A stretch of 32,000 nucleotides of DNA, taken from positions 1,530,001-1,562,000 of the forward strand of contig NZ_CP147990.1 of NCBI RefSeq assembly GCF_037902255.1, in the 5' to 3' direction. The DNA is from Candidatus Electrothrix sp. GW3-4 (lineage in GTDB: Bacteria; Desulfobacterota; Desulfobulbia; Desulfobulbales; Desulfobulbaceae). How positions within the stretch are numbered: position 1 is the first letter of the stretch; each line of letters begins with the position of its first letter. Position numbers and translations under genes: made by a program. The notes under the pieces were generated by a model. That model did no database searches. It was not told the DNA's origin and worked only from the letters and a program-made list of their open reading frames with translations. This document shows positions 13,702-20,565 of the stretch, one piece after another.

Positions 13702-15026
13702 ATGCTGCCACTGTCACAGGAAGATCAGGAATTGCTGAGCAGGTTGAATAGTAGGCCCGACCTGAAAAATCGTGTAAAATCAGTTTTATCTATAGCATGT
13801 GATGACGGAGATGGAATTGTAAGGGCAGATGAAGCGGAAAGTCGGATTATCGAGGAAATTCGACGCATGGGCAACGATGTGCTTACAGAATGGGCGGAGA
13901 GCCGAGTTGAAAAATCCGGGACGGATTTTCCGACGGACGGTGATATTACTCGCAGCGGTCAAAAAAAATCCATTGGCACAGCACATTCGGAAAGATAAGC
14001 GTCTTCGAGCAGATATATAAACAACAGGGAAAGCGACACCGACCGTTCAGTCGGAGTGCCGGAATAACCTGCCGGTGCTGTTCCCTGCCTCTGCAGCGAG
14101 CTGTGACCGATTTCGGTGCGGATCACTCTTTCGGTCGTGTTTCGGACAAACTGCTGGAACATTACGGGATAACTTTACCGACGAGCACTGTCCGCAACAT
14201 CACGGAAATTCACGCTCAACAAATATATGAAAGACGCCGTCGAGAAAGGATAGAAGAATATCCGGCTGTAACAGGACGAGATTGTGTAATCGCAGAGACG
14301 GACGGCAGCATGGTCCCCATTGTCGTGACGGATAGCAATGCCGAAGACCGGCGCAAAGGCAAAGAGTATGTTTGGAAAGAAGCACGCCTGAGTATTGCGC
14401 ATGTTCCCGGCGATACGACGCTCAAGTTCGGAGTGGAATTCCGGGAAGGAGTGGACGAGGCGGGAAAGGAGTTTTTCGACAGCGCGTGCCGGGCTGGATT
14501 TGGTTGGGGAACGTATCTGCATGCCGTAGGCGACGGTGCCTCGTGGATTGTCGGACAGGTGAAAAAACGATTCGGTCAGCAGGGAAATTATCTTGTCGAT
14601 TTCTATCATCTTTGCGAATACCTGGAAGGTACTGCACCGGCATTTCTCGGGAAAAGTGAAAAAGTTTCATGGGTCGCTCGGCAGAAAGAATTCCTGAAAT
14701 CGGGGCATACGGAAAAAGTGACCGAAGCATTGCGACCGCATCTTGAGCCGGACACGACGGAGGATCGGAATGCGCCTGTCCGCCGTTGCCTGCGTTATTT
14801 GCTTAACCGTCCGGGACAGTTCGATTATCCGGGCGCTCAGGCACGCGGTCTGCCTGTCGGTTCAGGTGAAATAGAGAGTGCGCACCGATATATTATTCAG
14901 GAACGTCTGAAAATCGCCGGTGCATGGTGGACGACGGAAAACGCCCGGTTTATGCTTGCTCTGAGGGTTGATCGTGCCGATGGATACTGGAACAGGTATT
15001 GGGAAGGAGTAAGCCGGGCGGCATAG
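13702..15026 (+). pseudogene. IS transposase split into two frames at an A8 run (a -1 shift restores a ~441-aa protein)
   Basis: The upstream frame (13702...) reads ..TRSGQKK and stops at 13996-13998. The -1 frame is open from 13944 and reads KKIHWHSTFGKISVFEQ...LQRAVTDFGADHSF through to TAG 15024-15026. The two frames overlap across the run AAAAAAAA at 13961-13968. This is either a 1-nt indel or programmed/transcriptional slippage. Confidence 0.65.
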
Positions 15027-15742: not shown

Positions 15743-17416
15743 ATGCTGGTAAGGTTTCTGTATATTCTGCTCGTTCTGTCAATTGCGCTTCCGGTGCAGG
15801 CCGCTTCTCCCTATGGTCGTTTTCACGCCTTGGTGATTGGTAATGAAAACTACAGACATCTCAAGACGCTGAATACTCCTATAGAGGATGCCGAGGCGGT
15901 GGCCGAGCTGTTACAAGATCAGTACGGATTTGACGTTGAGTTATTGCCGGATGCTACGTGGAAGCAGACTATGAGAGCGATCTCCGGGTTGCGGGTAACA
16001 GCAAATCAAGAGTCGGATAATCTGCTGATTTACTATGCCGGTCATGGGTATCTCAACAAAAAGACAGGGGTTGAATATTGGCAGCCAGTCGATGCTGAGA
16101 GAGATAATGATATCTACTGGATTCCGACATCAAGAATTACCAGTATGCTGAAAGAGATTCGGGCTAAACATGTGTTGGTGGTGGCTGATTCCTGCTATTC
16201 CGGCAGCCTGCTGACACGGGATTCCGGGGCGAAACTGCCGGACGGGTCAGGACTGGATGAACTGCTCCGGCGGATGCAGGAGAGACGTTCCCGCACCGCC
16301 CTGACCTCGGGCGGTGAAGAGCCGGTGTGGGATGCTGGCGGAGGAAATCATTCGGTGTTTGCCAAGGCGTTTCTTGATGCTTTGCGGGAGAATCGAAAAA
16401 TTCTGGACGGATATACCATCTTTGATCGGATCAGACGACCGGTCGCTTTGAATGCTCCGCAGACACCTCAGTACGGGGATATTCGGATGACAGGCCATGA
16501 GTGGGGTGATTTTTTGTTGGTGCCCAAGGAGTTGCAGAATATAGAGATTCCTGATTTTGTCGCGTCGCTTGCTGGTTTTGCCACCAGAGATAATTCTCGG
16601 CAGAACAAAGAACCTCAACAGGGCGATCCTTTCATCGACCCAACCACCGGCATGGAGTTGGTATATATCCCCAAGGGATGTTTTCAGATGGGGCAGACAG
16701 TTGAGGGAAAACAACAAATTATTGCCGAGGCTGGACAGGAGACTTACGACTCATACTATGAGGACGAACTTCCCCGGCATAAGGTGTGCGTGGATGGCTT
16801 CTGGATGGGAAAGTACGAAATGACCCAGGGGCAATGGAAGCAGATTATGGGCAAAAATCCGGCCAAATTTAAAAAGGGTGACAAGTATCCGGTGGAGCAG
16901 GTATCTTGGGAGGATGTGCAGAAGTTCATTGGTGAGCTAAATAAGAGAGCTGGTAAGAAATACCGTTTGCCCACTGAGGCGGAATGGGAGTATGCGGCTA
17001 GGGCCGGGACAACGACGGTACGGCATTGGGGGAATGATATTTCCTGTGATAAGGCGATGTATGACAACTATTCAGAAACGGATAACTGTGCCGAGTATGT
17101 CAGAAAACGAGGATTTCAGAATGGTTCCACCGCGCCAGTAGGAAAATATCCCGAGAATGATTTTCACCTGCATGATATGTTGGGGAATGTCTGGGAATGG
17201 TGTGCGGACTGGTATGACGAGAAATATTATGCTGAATGTAAGAAGCACGGTGTTACGAATAATCCGGTGGGCCCTTCGTCAGGCTCCGACCGCGTGATTC
17301 GCGGCGGCAGCTGGAGCAATGACCCGAGGCTCGTGCGTTCGGCGAATCGCCTCAGGAACACGCCTGGCTATCGCTACTTCAGCTTGGGCTTTCGGCTTGC
17401 TCTCCCAGATCAGTAA
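15743..17416 (+). CDS. secreted caspase-like (peptidase C14) + FGE-sulfatase/C-type-lectin-fold protein; DGR variable (target) protein
   Basis: Start at ATG 15743 (GGGGAG RBS). The 15548 start in the ORF track overlaps the preceding gene. Signal peptide MLVRFLYILLVLSIALPVQA/AS. Caspase dyad motifs LLIYYAGHG and VLVVADSCYSG. FGE-sulfatase domain GMELVYIPKGCFQMG...WEYAARAG...GNVWEWCADWY...RVIRGGSWSNDPRLVRSANR....LGFRLA, with the VR at its end. Confidence 0.85.
   Translation: MLVRFLYILLVLSIALPVQAASPYGRFHALVIGNENYRHLKTLNTPIEDAEAVAELLQDQYGFDVELLPDATWKQTMRAISGLRVTANQESDNLLIYYAGHGYLNKKTGVEYWQPVDAERDNDIYWIPTSRITSMLKEIRAKHVLVVADSCYSGSLLTRDSGAKLPDGSGLDELLRRMQERRSRTALTSGGEEPVWDAGGGNHSVFAKAFLDALRENRKILDGYTIFDRIRRPVALNAPQTPQYGDIRMTGHEWGDFLLVPKELQNIEIPDFVASLAGFATRDNSRQNKEPQQGDPFIDPTTGMELVYIPKGCFQMGQTVEGKQQIIAEAGQETYDSYYEDELPRHKVCVDGFWMGKYEMTQGQWKQIMGKNPAKFKKGDKYPVEQVSWEDVQKFIGELNKRAGKKYRLPTEAEWEYAARAGTTTVRHWGNDISCDKAMYDNYSETDNCAEYVRKRGFQNGSTAPVGKYPENDFHLHDMLGNVWEWCADWYDEKYYAECKKHGVTNNPVGPSSGSDRVIRGGSWSNDPRLVRSANRLRNTPGYRYFSLGFRLALPDQ
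17281..17412 (+). repeat. DGR variable repeat (VR), last 132 nt of the target gene
   Basis: Aligns to the TR at 18986-19093. The 70-nt left flank and 25-nt right flank are identical except for 5 positions, all at TR adenines. The central segment is 33 nt in the VR versus 9 nt (AACAACAAC) in the TR. Confidence 0.85.
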
Positions 17417-17427
17417 CGCAGGGGTTT

Positions 17428-17440
17428 GGGGCGAAGCCCC
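17428..17440 (+). other. GC-rich hairpin 16 nt downstream of the VR (candidate DGR target-recognition hairpin and/or terminator)
   Basis: GGGGC-gaa-GCCCC, followed 6 nt later by TTTTTT (17447-17452). Confidence 0.4.
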
Positions 17441-17516
17441 GGCGAATTTTTTATGAGGTATTACAGAAATGTATTGTTTTTTTTAAACGAATTTCACGTT
17501 TATAACGTCGCCAATT

Positions 17517-18020
17517 ATGTCTCTTCAATACAAAGTATTCACAGTGCGTCCCGTGTTTTCCTCAGAAGACGAGGAGGCGTTGAACCTGTTCCTTCGCTCT
17601 CATAAAGTTCTGACCGTCCATCAAGAGTTTGTCGCCGACGGCATCAATTCGGCTTGGCATTTTGCCGTCGAATTTCTCGTAGGCCAAGCCAATGAAAAGA
17701 GTGGTTCCGGCGACGGGCGCAAAAGAATTGACTATCGGGAATCCCTTGATCCAGAATCCTTCTCCCTATATGCCCGTCTGCGAGACTGGCGTAAGCAGGT
17801 TGCTGAACAGGAGGCCGTGCCCTTGTACACCATCTTCACTAACAAACAGCTGGCATGCATAGCCGAGGAGCGTATACAGAGTAAGGAAGGCTTGCGGAAG
17901 ATTGAAGGTGTCGGCGCGGCCAGAATAGATAAATATGGGGCGGCTCTCATTGAACTTGTTGTAACAGCTCACGAAAAAAACGATGAAGCGCCTGAACAAC
18001 CTCTATCCACAGATCACTGA
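17517..18020 (+). CDS. HRDC-domain DGR accessory protein
   Basis: 167 aa. The C-terminal ~70 aa (LYARLRDWRKQVAEQEAVPLYTIFTNKQLACIAEERIQSKEGLRKIEGVGAARIDKYGAALIELV) match the HRDC (RecQ/RNase D C-terminal) pattern. The gene overlaps the RT start by 38 nt. Confidence 0.75.
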   Translation: MSLQYKVFTVRPVFSSEDEEALNLFLRSHKVLTVHQEFVADGINSAWHFAVEFLVGQANEKSGSGDGRKRIDYRESLDPESFSLYARLRDWRKQVAEQEAVPLYTIFTNKQLACIAEERIQSKEGLRKIEGVGAARIDKYGAALIELVVTAHEKNDEAPEQPLSTDH

Positions 18021-19002
18021 TCCAGATAATCTCCGTCTGGCCTTTTGTAAGGCTGCACGAGGTAAACAGGACAGAGCCGAGGCTGTCAGATTTCGTGCGG
18101 ATTTTGAACGGAATATTCAAAAATTGCACAGACAGCTCCTGCTTGAGGAACCGGATATCGGCCATTATCGTTTTTTCACCGTTTGTGATCCTAAACCACG
18201 CCGTATCTGTGCGGCTTCGTTCCCGGAGCGGGTGCTGCATCATGCGATTATGAACGTCTGCGAACCGGCCCTGAACGCCTATCACATTTATGATACTTAT
18301 GCCTGCCTGCCCGGTAGAGGCCAGTATAAGGCCCTGGATCGTGCGGTTAAATTTTCAGGTTCATCGTCCTGGTATTTACAACTTGATATCAGACACTATT
18401 TTGATTCCATTGATCATCGCATCATGCTTGATCTGCTGAAGAGAAGATTCAAGGACAAGCAGCTGCTCAACCTTTTTGCCCAACTGCTGGACAGCTTTCA
18501 CAGTCGGCCCGGCAAAGGTCTGCCCATTGGCAACCTGATTTCCCAGCATCTTGCCAATTACTACCTCGGTATATTTGACCATTGGATTAAGGAGGAGCGG
18601 CGTTATAAAAAATATTTGCGTTACATGGACGATTTCGTTCTGTTTGGTCAAAGTAAGGAAAAATTACGTCAGGAGCTTTGCCGGATTGAAGAATATCTTG
18701 AGAGAACCCTGCAATTACAGTTGCGGCAACCGATAAAGCTTAATCGTTGCCGCCTTGGAGTGACCTTTCTCGGTTATCGCGTTTTTCCAAGCGGGCTACG
18801 CCTGTCGGCCCAGAGTAAAAAACGCTTCATACGTAAACTGAAACAGTATGAGGAAATGTATCAGCTCGGTATATGGGGTGAAGATACTCTAAGCAGACAT
18901 GTTGAACCGCTGATAGAATTTACCAGACACGCCAAGGCAGATGGTTTTCGCCGAACTGTGCTGGAACGATACGGGGGCTGTCCTGAGGCTCCAACCGCGT
19001 GA
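17983..19002 (+). CDS. DGR-type reverse transcriptase
   Basis: 339 aa with RT motifs PKPRRICAASFPERVLHHAIMNV, YLQLDIRHYFDSIDH, LPIGNLISQHLANYYL (DGR hallmark [ILV]GxxxSQ), YLRYMDDFVLF (YMDD) and VTFLGYRV. The stop codon TGA 19000-19002 lies inside the TR. Confidence 0.9.
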   Translation: MKRLNNLYPQITDPDNLRLAFCKAARGKQDRAEAVRFRADFERNIQKLHRQLLLEEPDIGHYRFFTVCDPKPRRICAASFPERVLHHAIMNVCEPALNAYHIYDTYACLPGRGQYKALDRAVKFSGSSSWYLQLDIRHYFDSIDHRIMLDLLKRRFKDKQLLNLFAQLLDSFHSRPGKGLPIGNLISQHLANYYLGIFDHWIKEERRYKKYLRYMDDFVLFGQSKEKLRQELCRIEEYLERTLQLQLRQPIKLNRCRLGVTFLGYRVFPSGLRLSAQSKKRFIRKLKQYEEMYQLGIWGEDTLSRHVEPLIEFTRHAKADGFRRTVLERYGGCPEAPTA

Positions 19003-19093
19003 TTCGCGGCGGCAGCTGGAACAATAACCCGAGGAACGTGCGTTCGGCGAATCGCAACAACAACTTGGGCTTTCGGCTTGCTCTCCCAGCTCA
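18986..19093 (+). repeat. DGR template repeat (TR), 108 nt
   Basis: Invariant, adenine-rich copy of the VR. In the VR frame it encodes NRVIRGGSWNNNPRNVRSANRNNNLGFRLA with 7 AAC and 1 AAT Asn codons. It starts 17 nt before the RT stop. Confidence 0.85.
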
Positions 19094-19334
19094 CCAATGG
19101 TGTGGTGTATCCGTTGCTGAACAGGACAGAATCCGGTCCTCCGTTAAGAGCGGAGGCAAACATGAAGGAGGACTTATCGGGGTTGGTAGTGCCAGCTGGA
19201 TGGCGGCGCGAAAGCCCCGGTTTGTTTTATTGTATCAATACTTCAAAGGAATTAATGATGTTATCATTCATCGGAATGATAACATAAATCGTGCCGCCTG
19301 ACTTACGCCCCCATCAGGTCCAAGGAACCAACCA

Positions 19335-19616
19335 ATGAAAGTCGCAAATCCCCTCTACGATGTCGTGTTCAAATACCTGATGCAGGATATGCGGGTTGCC
19401 AAGCTGGTCATATCCAACATCATTGAACAGGAGATGGAAGATGAAATTCTGGAGCAATTAGCAACTCAGGAGCGGGTAATAGCTTACGAAAGGGCGGAAA
19501 AAGAGAAAGCGGAAGTTGAAAAAAGGAAAGCGGAAGCGGAGAAAGAAAAAGCGGAAGCGGAAGCGGAAAAAGACAGGCTTGAAAAATTATTGAAGCAAGC
19601 AGGTATTGAGTTTTAA
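19335..19616 (+). CDS. internally deleted paralog of the downstream PD-(D/E)XK (Rpn/YhgA-like) gene
   Basis: 93 aa. The first ~30 aa (MKVANPLYDVVFKYLMQDMRVAKLVISNII) parallel the N-terminus of the 19684 gene, then the sequence jumps straight to a K/E/A coiled-coil tail. The nuclease core is missing. Confidence 0.45.
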   Translation: MKVANPLYDVVFKYLMQDMRVAKLVISNIIEQEMEDEILEQLATQERVIAYERAEKEKAEVEKRKAEAEKEKAEAEAEKDRLEKLLKQAGIEF

Positions 19617-19683: not shown

Positions 19684-20565
19684 GTGCAGATAGCGAATCC
19701 GGTGTATGATGTCGTCTTCAAATATCTGATGGCCGACAACAGCATAGCGAAAAAGATCATCTCGCTCATTATCGGCGAGGAAATAGAAAACCTTGATTTT
19801 CAGCCCACGGAATACAGCGATGATGTGGACAAGGGCAACAGGTCGCTCACCGTCTACCGGCTTGACTTCGCGGCGACCGTGCGCCTGCCCGACGGGAGCC
19901 GCAAGCGAATCATCATCGAGATCCAGAAAGCCAAATTCGCCACCGACATCATGCGGTTCCGTAACTATCTCGGTAAACAGTACTCGAACAAAAACAACGT
20001 GTATGAAGAGGGGAACAGATCGAAAGCCTGTCCGATCCTGAGTATTTATTTTCTGGGCCATCGGCTGGACAATGTCCATGTTCCGGTCACTAGGGTGGAG
20101 CGGAAGTATTATGACAACGCCACAGGCGAGGAACTTCCTGTCCGGGAGGAATTTATTGAAAGCCTGACGCATGACAGCTTTGTTATTCAGATTTCCGAAC
20201 TCAGACGGAAGCGGAGAAACCTGTTGGAAAAAGTGCTGGCGGTGTTCGAGCAGCCCGCTTCGGTGAAGACTCCCCATTTTCTTGATATTTCCGAGTCCGA
20301 GTATCCAGCGGAGTACAGGGAGGTGATCCGAAGGCTGATACAAGCCGCTGCTGAACCCCAGGTCAGGCAGACTATGGATGTGGAGGATGAAATCATAGAG
20401 GAACTCGGCAGTCTTGAACGCATTATAGCGGTTCGTGATAAAACGATTGATGATCAGAAAAGGGAACTTGATGACAAGGACAGGGAGCTTAGTGATAAAA
20501 ACAAGGCTCTTGATGATCAAAAAAAGCTCATTGAGGAATTAAAGAGACAGCTTGGTGAAAAATAA
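19684..20565 (+). CDS. PD-(D/E)XK nuclease family protein (Rpn/YhgA-like putative recombination-promoting nuclease/transposase)
   Basis: 293 aa with a GTG start. N-terminus MQIANPVYDVVFKYLM. Core RLDFAATV....RIIIEIQKAKF (D...ExQ motif). C-terminal coiled coil with D/K/E repeats. Confidence 0.6.
   Translation: MQIANPVYDVVFKYLMADNSIAKKIISLIIGEEIENLDFQPTEYSDDVDKGNRSLTVYRLDFAATVRLPDGSRKRIIIEIQKAKFATDIMRFRNYLGKQYSNKNNVYEEGNRSKACPILSIYFLGHRLDNVHVPVTRVERKYYDNATGEELPVREEFIESLTHDSFVIQISELRRKRRNLLEKVLAVFEQPASVKTPHFLDISESEYPAEYREVIRRLIQAAAEPQVRQTMDVEDEIIEELGSLERIIAVRDKTIDDQKRELDDKDRELSDKNKALDDQKKLIEELKRQLGEK

Follow-up and report, generated by a model that had tools for sequence, protein, structure and literature searches.

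Diversity-generating retroelements (DGRs) of the HRDC type with an FGE target (Architecture C of Wu et al. 2018; TvpA, 2Y3C) are known as cassettes in which a target gene, an HRDC gene, a reverse transcriptase (RT) and a template repeat (TR) follow one another in this order. The target carries its variable repeat (VR) at the C-terminus in an FGE-sulfatase fold with the pattern GGSW...R.A.R....P..R....GFR, the TR is rich in AAC, and TR and VR differ at adenines only. An element with all these features is present in the cable bacterium Candidatus Electrothrix sp. GW3-4, in a 32-kb stretch of its closed 4.64-Mb chromosome (the window; positions given without a contig name count from its first letter). 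Positions 15743-19240 of this window constitute a complete HRDC-type DGR with target, HRDC gene, RT and TR in the usual order. In contrast to the known elements of this type it has a TR without eight codons which are kept in the VR, a target with an N-terminal caspase, and a cable bacterium as host. It is an ordinary HRDC-type DGR with an FGE-lectin target in other respects, and TR/VR length differences as such have been known; what is added here is the polarity of the change between TR and VR, together with indications that TRs contain a hot spot of recurrent deletion which is encoded in their sequence.

Length differences between TR and VR were found by Wu et al. 2018 (NAR 46:11) in 25 of 372 DGRs (7%), 74% of them next to AAC, and were ascribed to template slippage of the RT, possibly as an extra mutagenic capacity. 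The indel of GW3-4 resembles these in being in frame and in adjoining AAC repeats in the TR, where the junction reads AATCGC followed by AACAACAAC at 19050-19064. It differs from them in that its direction could be resolved, to a DNA deletion in the TR and not an RT-made indel in the VR, and its 24 nt are much more than the 1-6 nt typical of indels in related DGRs. In a kanamycin-repair reporter based on the BPP-1 DGR (PMC12875486) homing copies an 18-nt insertion encoded by the TR into the target. The parallel is a TR/VR length difference which homing passes to the target, whereas the reporter uses an engineered insertion in an Avd-type phage DGR and GW3-4 has a natural deletion in a chromosomal DGR of the HRDC type. 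According to Dore et al. 2024 (PMC10907252) DGRs of multicellular bacteria diversify putative antigen sensors of conflict systems. The caspase-lectin target of a cable bacterium fits this proposed use, the common features being a multicellular host, a C-type-lectin target with a caspase-like peptidase effector and the chromosomal location; cable bacteria, Desulfobulbaceae and HRDC do not occur in that paper, and no MoxR/VMAP partner genes were identified next to the GW3-4 locus. A literature search found no paper naming both Electrothrix and DGRs.

Judged by where identity begins and ends, the VR of GW3-4 measures 128 nt and is thus 24 nt longer than the TR with its 104 nt. Between identical flanks the VR reads CTCAGGAACACGCCTGGCTATCGCTACTTCAGC (33 nt, 17351-17383) where the TR has only AACAACAAC (19056-19064). 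These strings, their coordinates and the in-frame excess of 24 nt had been pointed out in a preliminary description of this DNA and were confirmed. All mismatches in the aligned part (9/9) fall on TR adenines, and there are none at other bases in 101 nt. The TR contains 22 adenines, 21 of which are at codon positions 1 or 2, and the chance that nine of nine mismatches fall on 22 adenines among 101 TR bases is about 1e-6. This pattern argues that the VR was written, and written recently, by the lineage of this TR. Where the gap lies was examined by sliding a 24-nt gap through the region and counting the mismatches for each placement. Placements from 17346-17369 to 17352-17375 (and 17355/17356) yielded nine mismatches each, all at TR adenines, while a gap at the right-hand end (17360-17383) introduced one non-adenine mismatch, C>G at 17356. 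The gap thus sits at the left of the 33 nt and not at the right. The best in-frame description of the VR-only segment is 17351-17374, CTC AGG AAC ACG CCT GGC TAT CGC, encoding LRNTPGYR, and with this placement the TR codons AAC AAC AAC pair with TAC TTC AGC of the VR. No further copies of TR or VR occur in the window.

The properties by which DGRs are recognized are present in GW3-4, namely an RT of the DGR clade, adenine-only differences, a C-terminal VR in a C-type-lectin/FGE fold, and the HRDC accessory gene together with an initiation of mutagenic homing (IMH) boundary and a hairpin 3' of the VR. Equal length of TR and VR, which is usual but not strictly defining for DGRs, is the property that GW3-4 lacks. 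The first blastn self-comparisons had missed the pair, since a gap of 24 nt costs more than the right-hand block earns, and were replaced by a local aligner with cheap gap extension and a small penalty for adenine mismatches. Gap-penalising pipelines are likely to miss or mis-score such pairs in the same way.

The direction of the change was obtained from orthologous elements. The nearest relatives of the RT are found in Ca. Electrothrix sp. EH2 (89% identity, no gaps) and Ca. E. marina (87%), and both of these have full-length TRs, which read ...GCG AAC CGC AAC AGG AAC ACG CCT GAC AAT CGC AAC AAC AAT CTG GGA... in EH2 and ...AAC CGT AAC AGG AAC ACG CCT GAC AGA CGC AAC AAC AAC CTG GGC... in E. 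marina. In EH2 the TR and VR are of equal length and show 13 differences, all at adenines. The 24 nt found only in the VR of GW3-4 differ from the corresponding EH2 TR segment AACAGGAACACGCCTGACAATCGC at four positions, and all four are adenines in the EH2 TR. Because the orthologous TRs are full length and the VR-only segment matches the EH2 TR save at adenines, the deletion in the TR is placed after the last homing; the comparison indicates that the GW3-4 TR once held the 24 nt, wrote the VR with them, and then lost them. A deletion in a full-length ancestral TR after the last homing event had been proposed in the preliminary description, and the orthologous loci of related genomes bear this out. 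As TR and VR have not diverged at non-adenine positions, the deletion appears to be recent relative to point mutation.

An ancestral GW3-4 TR was reconstructed from the GW3-4 VR (AATCGC... and TATCGCTAC) plus the TRs of EH2 and E. marina. It would have read ...GCG AAT CGC [AAC AGG AAC ACG CCT GAC AAT CGC] AAC AAC AAC TTG GGC..., with the lost nucleotides in brackets. According to the proposed sequence of events this full-length TR wrote the present VR by adenine-specific mutagenic homing, and the TR DNA would then have lost exactly 24 nt, that is one unit of a 9-nt direct repeat AATCGCAAC plus the spacer. The likeliest cause would be replication slippage (slipped-strand mispairing) or microhomology-mediated deletion. 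The VR may have been spared the same deletion because homing had already altered adenines inside its own copies of the repeat, and no full-length homing event would have become fixed in the GW3-4 lineage since the TR was shortened. The suggestion that repeats bounded the deletion therefore stands, though not for AAC repeats as such, the candidates being AATCGC(AAC) direct repeats 24 nt apart.

Repeats at this particular distance are common in the TRs of related DGRs. For 97 TRs of the same length as their VRs the longest exact repeats with a spacing of 24 nt were determined; their median length is 9 nt and their maximum 18 nt, and 61% of these TRs reach 9 nt or more. With spacings of 15, 18, 21, 27, 30 and 33 nt this length is reached in only 0-23% of TRs. 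The corresponding median in the cognate VRs (n=103) is 4 nt, and only two of the 103 reach 8 nt. Long repeats in TRs and short ones in VRs imply that the repeat is lost from the VR through homing but persists in the TR, which remains fragile. The source of the repeat is the protein pattern R-N-N-N...R-N-N-N, which is coded twice with the same codons 24 nt apart in FGE-type TRs. A hot spot for deletions would thus be inherent in TRs of this type, and homing would remove it from the VR.

The degree to which the short form is abnormal was examined in 120 TR/VR pairs from 107 related loci, some of which are duplicated between collections. Ninety-seven pairs are iso-length and 21 have indels of 1-6 nt; large gaps are confined to the GW3-4 locus (24 nt) and the degenerate second VR of L022. 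The statement that TR and VR are normally of equal length thus holds as a rule but not as an absolute, with exceptions in 7% of the DGRs in Wu et al. 2018 and in about 19% of the related pairs. In 146 related TRs the encoded spacer, taken as the residues between the W of GGSW and GFR, has 24 residues in 139 cases, 23 and 25 residues in one case each, and 16 residues in two, which are GW3-4 and L044. The remaining three TRs, with apparent spacers of 38 residues, are over-long pattern matches; they read NNNARNCRSANRNNNTPDNRNNNI and have the normal spacer of 24 residues. In about 85 homologous target proteins the spacer between W and GFR is mostly 23-27 residues long and never 16. Short-spacer pattern matches in real proteins (P0062, 16-17-residue cases) were rejected as mostly artefacts ending at an internal PG[LIF]R. 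A few proteins appear shortened, namely P0145 and P0167 (17 residues), P0255 (16) and P0168 (19).

The eight residues LRNTPGYR align without gaps to SQNTPDSS of human FGE. They comprise both P and R of RxAxRxxxxPxxRxxxxGFR, the consensus of the family, so that the lost codons do include the conserved P..R, as had been supposed. In the structural model of the target residues 537-544 are confidently predicted, with a strand at 537-539. Complete homing from the present TR would delete these residues, which are part of the R-x4-P-x2-R-x4-GFR core.

Small indels were seen in about 19% of related TR/VR pairs (L021, L025, L050, L052, L080, L036, L042, L047, L162, L011), a higher rate than the 7% of Wu et al. 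2018. They comprise 1-nt indels (frameshifts if in the VR), 3-nt losses by which a single AAC codon disappears, and, in L011, a tandem duplication of 6 nt in its second VR.

Short TRs were also searched for elsewhere, by phmmer with the 34-aa TR translation against 1.84 billion representatives and by a word-indexed search with a 100-aa open reading frame (ORF) of the TR. The matches were mostly N-rich ORFs encoded by the TRs of other DGRs. Among the TR-like ORFs 160 had a spacer of 24 residues and six a spacer of 16, GW3-4 included; the query is biased towards short forms, and the counts do not give a frequency. Six independent DGRs or remnants with a short TR were found besides GW3-4, and every VR of measurable length is 21-24 nt longer than its TR. 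In L167 the VR (328-451) is 24 nt longer than the TR (1193-1292); the VR reads GCC TAC CGC GGC GAC AAC CAC CCG GAC GGC CGC GAC TAC AGC ATA where the TR has GCC AAC CGC AAC AAC AAC ATA, and only the first ~53 residues of the RT survive. L169/L170 (L169:498-632, 1301-1235, 778-890) has two VRs on opposite strands, each seven codons longer than the TR, with several non-adenine TR/VR mismatches and no RT. The RT is internally deleted in L166 and L171, in both of which a VR is not visible. In L168 the TR/VR similarity breaks at the same CGC junction, the contig being too short to judge the RT, and in L044, from a Clostridiales metagenome-assembled genome (short TR at 1640-1740), the VR is cut off by the contig start and the RT is intact and accompanied by HRDC. 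The RT is thus missing or internally deleted in four of the six other loci (L166, L167, L169, L171). The deletion has thus occurred repeatedly, and most of its carriers are DGR wrecks.

Whereas length differences have so far been read as RT slippage, in GW3-4 and in at least two other lineages with measurable VRs it is the template that lost sequence and the target that kept it. This suggests a general and predictable route of death for the common FGE-type class of DGRs. Elements on this route would be recognisable by a TR which falls short of its VR by 24 nt, and this could let surveys separate live from frozen DGRs.

As regards the present state of the GW3-4 element, its RT and HRDC proteins are full length and collinear with their orthologues. 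A complete homing event in GW3-4 would be expected to shorten the VR by 24 nt, because homing in BPP-1 copies the length of the TR into the target. The VR assembled from the runs examined is not shortened, as would be expected if the deletion is very recent, if the element is inactive, or if shortened products are purged. The element was therefore either damaged very recently or is effectively frozen because homing products are selected against. A frozen element, or one caught in the course of decay, had been envisaged in the preliminary description, and both the orthologue comparison and the recurrence at other loci lend support to this. The truncation of the TR would represent the initial step on a route of decay that recurs in TRs of this class, and the GW3-4 element has probably stalled at an early step of it. 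Variation in the population was looked for as well. The 90% cluster of the target consists of one sequence only, and the runs SRR28154589 and SRR28154590 gave one and the same VR allele, which speaks weakly against heavy VR heterogeneity. A scan of JGI metagenomes with a degenerate TR/VR pattern allowing a spacer of 9-33 nt gave no match and hence no population variants there, neither a short VR nor a long TR, and a metagenome scan with the RT gave nothing above 64% identity.

It is considered likely that GW3-4 carries a complete DGR whose TR suffered a deletion after homing and which is now recently damaged or frozen. Several points weigh against this explanation. Neither the RT nor the HRDC gene nor the element 3' of the TR is damaged, and non-adenine differences between TR and VR are absent, which makes decay a forecast and not an observation. 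The ancestral 9-nt repeat is a reconstruction, and EH2 has an imperfect AACCGC/AATCGC pair at this place. Harm from a loop of 16 residues is deduced, and the link between short TRs and RT loss is suggestive, being drawn from six loci found with a short-form query and without a matched long-TR control. The alleles are known from assemblies alone, and minor short-VR or long-TR variants may exist. The search for a second TR covered the window, the 90% cluster of the RT and TR-like ORFs, and not the whole GW3-4 chromosome.

The last point concerns the alternative that a second, full-length TR elsewhere in the chromosome writes the VR, the local TR being defunct or serving other, short VRs. Several DGRs are present in about 10% of DGR-bearing complete genomes (Wu et al. 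2018), and GW3-4 does have a paralogue of the target, the caspase-FGE gene P0010, whose 3' end is VR-like. Against a second writer, the local TR equals the VR at every non-adenine position, and the orthologues show that the local TR was full length. The 90% cluster of the RT holds no second GW3-4 protein, and searches with TR peptides gave no full-length TR ORF that fits the VR, though the short TR ORF of GW3-4 was recovered; the closest full-length TR ORFs, P0272 and P0156 (EH2), differ at non-adenine codons. The VR-like end of P0010 has many non-adenine mismatches and is followed by no RT in the 770 nt available downstream, for which reasons P0010 was rejected both as another target and as a pointer to a donor DGR. 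With nothing found in the places searched, another full-length TR, which had been offered as an alternative from the outset, is weakened and now appears improbable.

An equally doubtful alternative is that the short TR and the long VR form a working arrangement. Partial cDNAs would rewrite Y545-F546-S547 or both flanks separately, and the P..R core would be shielded by its absence from the template, so that the DGR edits on either side of an insert which is itself protected. Such an arrangement is seen in three or more lineages whose VRs could be measured, all of these VRs being long, and both GW3-4 and L044 have kept an intact RT, HRDC gene and RNA element 3' of the TR. Adenines are substituted at four of six positions 3' of the gap as compared to five of 15 on the 5' side, which is not significant. 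This view conflicts with the loss of the RT in four of the six other short-TR loci, as expected for debris and not for design. Moreover the P and R codons of normal TRs are free of adenines and hence protected already, homing in BPP-1 copies the length of the TR into the target, and only 5-6 nt of homology are available directly 5' of the three codons. A deletion in the TR that left the element recently damaged or frozen is preferred over both of these alternatives.

Less probable still is that the TR is ancestral and that the RT, by slipping on the template or by some other non-canonical activity in the course of homing, added 24 nt to the VR. The junction adjoins AAC AAC AAC in the TR, the commonest DGR indels adjoin AAC and have been ascribed to RT slippage (Wu et al. 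2018; discussed in PMC12875486), and small AAC-adjacent indels of 3-6 nt occur in related loci. The 24 nt (CTCAGGAACACGCCTGGCTATCGC) are without a template in the present TR, however, with none for instance for AGG AAC ACG CCT GGC, so that reverse transcription of this TR does not account for the extra bases. Furthermore 20 of the 24 positions match the orthologous TR segment, with all differences at adenines, and the long form is the family norm in TRs, in VRs and even in human FGE.

A collapsed repeat in the TR as an assembly or sequencing artefact, conceivable in view of the AAC-rich TR and of two near-identical repeats that could confuse assemblers, can practically be dismissed, since the repeat of only 9 nt is far below assembler k-mer sizes and both repeats are the same in the closed chromosome and in the separate Logan assemblies of SRR28154589 and SRR28154590, the contigs of which are 100% identical to the window (short TR in L001 and L002, long VR in L001 and L172).

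The features of the element are collected in Table 1.

Table 1. Features of the DGR locus of Candidatus Electrothrix sp. GW3-4 (positions in the window)
Feature	Position	Strand	Basis
DGR target gene, WP_339137932.1, 557 aa	15743..17416	+	Pfam PF00656 and PF03781
Variable repeat (VR), 128 nt, encodes ...GSDRVIRGGSWSNDPRLVRSANRLRNTPGYRYFSLGFRLALP	17281..17408	+	Repeat families D1 and D2, mismatch table
Left copy of direct repeat ATCGC flanking the VR-only segment (TR: AATCGC)	17346..17350	+	Sequence
VR-only 24 nt, LRNTPGYR = residues 537-544; slides within 17346-17375 (flanking repeat)	17351..17374	+	
Right copy of direct repeat ATCGC; VR TATCGC = AATCGC after A>T; EH2 TR GACAATCGCAAC	17370..17374	+	
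Start of IMH-side divergence, stop codon, hairpin TTGGGGC-GAA-GCCCCGG, T run	17409..17442	+	Sequence
HRDC-domain accessory gene, intact	17517..18020	+	Pfam PF00570; 82% identity to EH2 orthologue
DGR reverse transcriptase, 339 aa, intact	17983..19002	+	Pfam PF00078 (RVT_1)
Template repeat (TR), 104 nt, overlaps RT stop codon, encodes GSNRVIRGGSWNNNPRNVRSANRNNNLGFRLALP	18986..19089	+	
Deletion junction, sole surviving copy of the putative 9-nt direct repeat AATCGCAAC	19050..19058	+	GW3-4 VR and orthologue TRs
Conserved non-coding element directly 3' of TR, kept in GW3-4	19088..19240	+	Alignment of 32 family members

The target protein consists of a signal peptide, a Peptidase_C14 caspase domain and a C-terminal domain of the FGE-sulfatase or C-type-lectin fold which ends in the VR. 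An AlphaFold model of the native protein had a mean pLDDT of 85. In Foldseek searches the C-terminal half of this model matched TvpA of Treponema denticola (2Y3C, TM 0.72), FGE and PvdO, and the N-terminal half matched the paracaspase MALT1; sequence matches in the PDB were to FGE and TvpA. The RT translation contains the motifs LPIGNLISQ and RYMDDFV, corresponding to [I/L]GxxxSQ and YxDD of the DGR clade, and 238 of its relatives were confirmed by tblastn, each being an RT followed by a TR.

TR and VR diverge from 17409/19090 on, at a family-conserved site which reads AGCTCA in the TR and AGATCA in the VR. The G+C hairpin 3' of the VR (17426-17442) is at the site expected for a DGR target-recognition hairpin and is also terminator-like; a putative role in recognition is suggested by Guo et al. 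2011. Directly 3' of the TR all members of the RT family share a conserved element of about 150 nt (19088-19240), which is probably the RNA spacer/priming region of HRDC-type DGRs. It contains AGCTCA, CTGA-CCGG..ATCCCG, a CCCC/GGGG hairpin, GCTGGTAG, GGATG, GCGAAGG and a T run. RNAalifold on a MAFFT alignment of this region yielded one hairpin only, with CG<->UA compensatory changes. The GW3-4 copy has a 6-nt GTGTGG insertion compared to its orthologues. No Rfam family matched anywhere in the window, this element included. An exact 14-nt direct repeat GTTGCTGAACAGGA is found at 17799-17812 in the HRDC gene and at 19113-19126 in the element 3' of the TR; about 0.1 such repeats are expected by chance in 7 kb, and it could be a pairing site or a coincidence.

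The caspase-FGE gene P0010 is part of a cassette elsewhere in the GW3-4 genome (L084:9315-11632, Logan SRR28154588), in which a gene for a membrane protein of 227 aa is followed by the caspase-FGE gene of 543 aa. The 3' end of the latter resembles a full-length VR, and the 770 nt downstream lack an HRDC gene as well as an RT. The cassette may be a relic target of an older DGR.

The DGR is followed by two adjacent genes (19335-19616 and 19684-20565) with near-identical N-termini (MKVANPLYDVVFKYLM and MQIANPVYDVVFKYLM), for which no Pfam or NCBIfam assignment was found. The same gene start also occurs after the paralogous cassette (L084:12352-12403, with 88% identity in 52 nt). Shortly after the start of the first of the two genes, near 19352-19362, the Logan contigs L001 and L002 break off, so that this is a multi-copy gene family. 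Just upstream of the DGR cassette lies a truncated transposase of the ISKra4 family (13702-13998 and 14103-15026), a degraded insertion sequence. The match covers profile positions 122-422 of 422 and is under the curated cut-off, with a possible N-terminal fragment upstream.

Seven small proteins (P0129, P0168, P0184, P0187, P0231, P0242, P0253) of 85-215 aa consist of 2-4 tandem RGGSW...GFR units. Only the last ~45 residues of the FGE fold are repeated in these proteins, without the rest of the domain.

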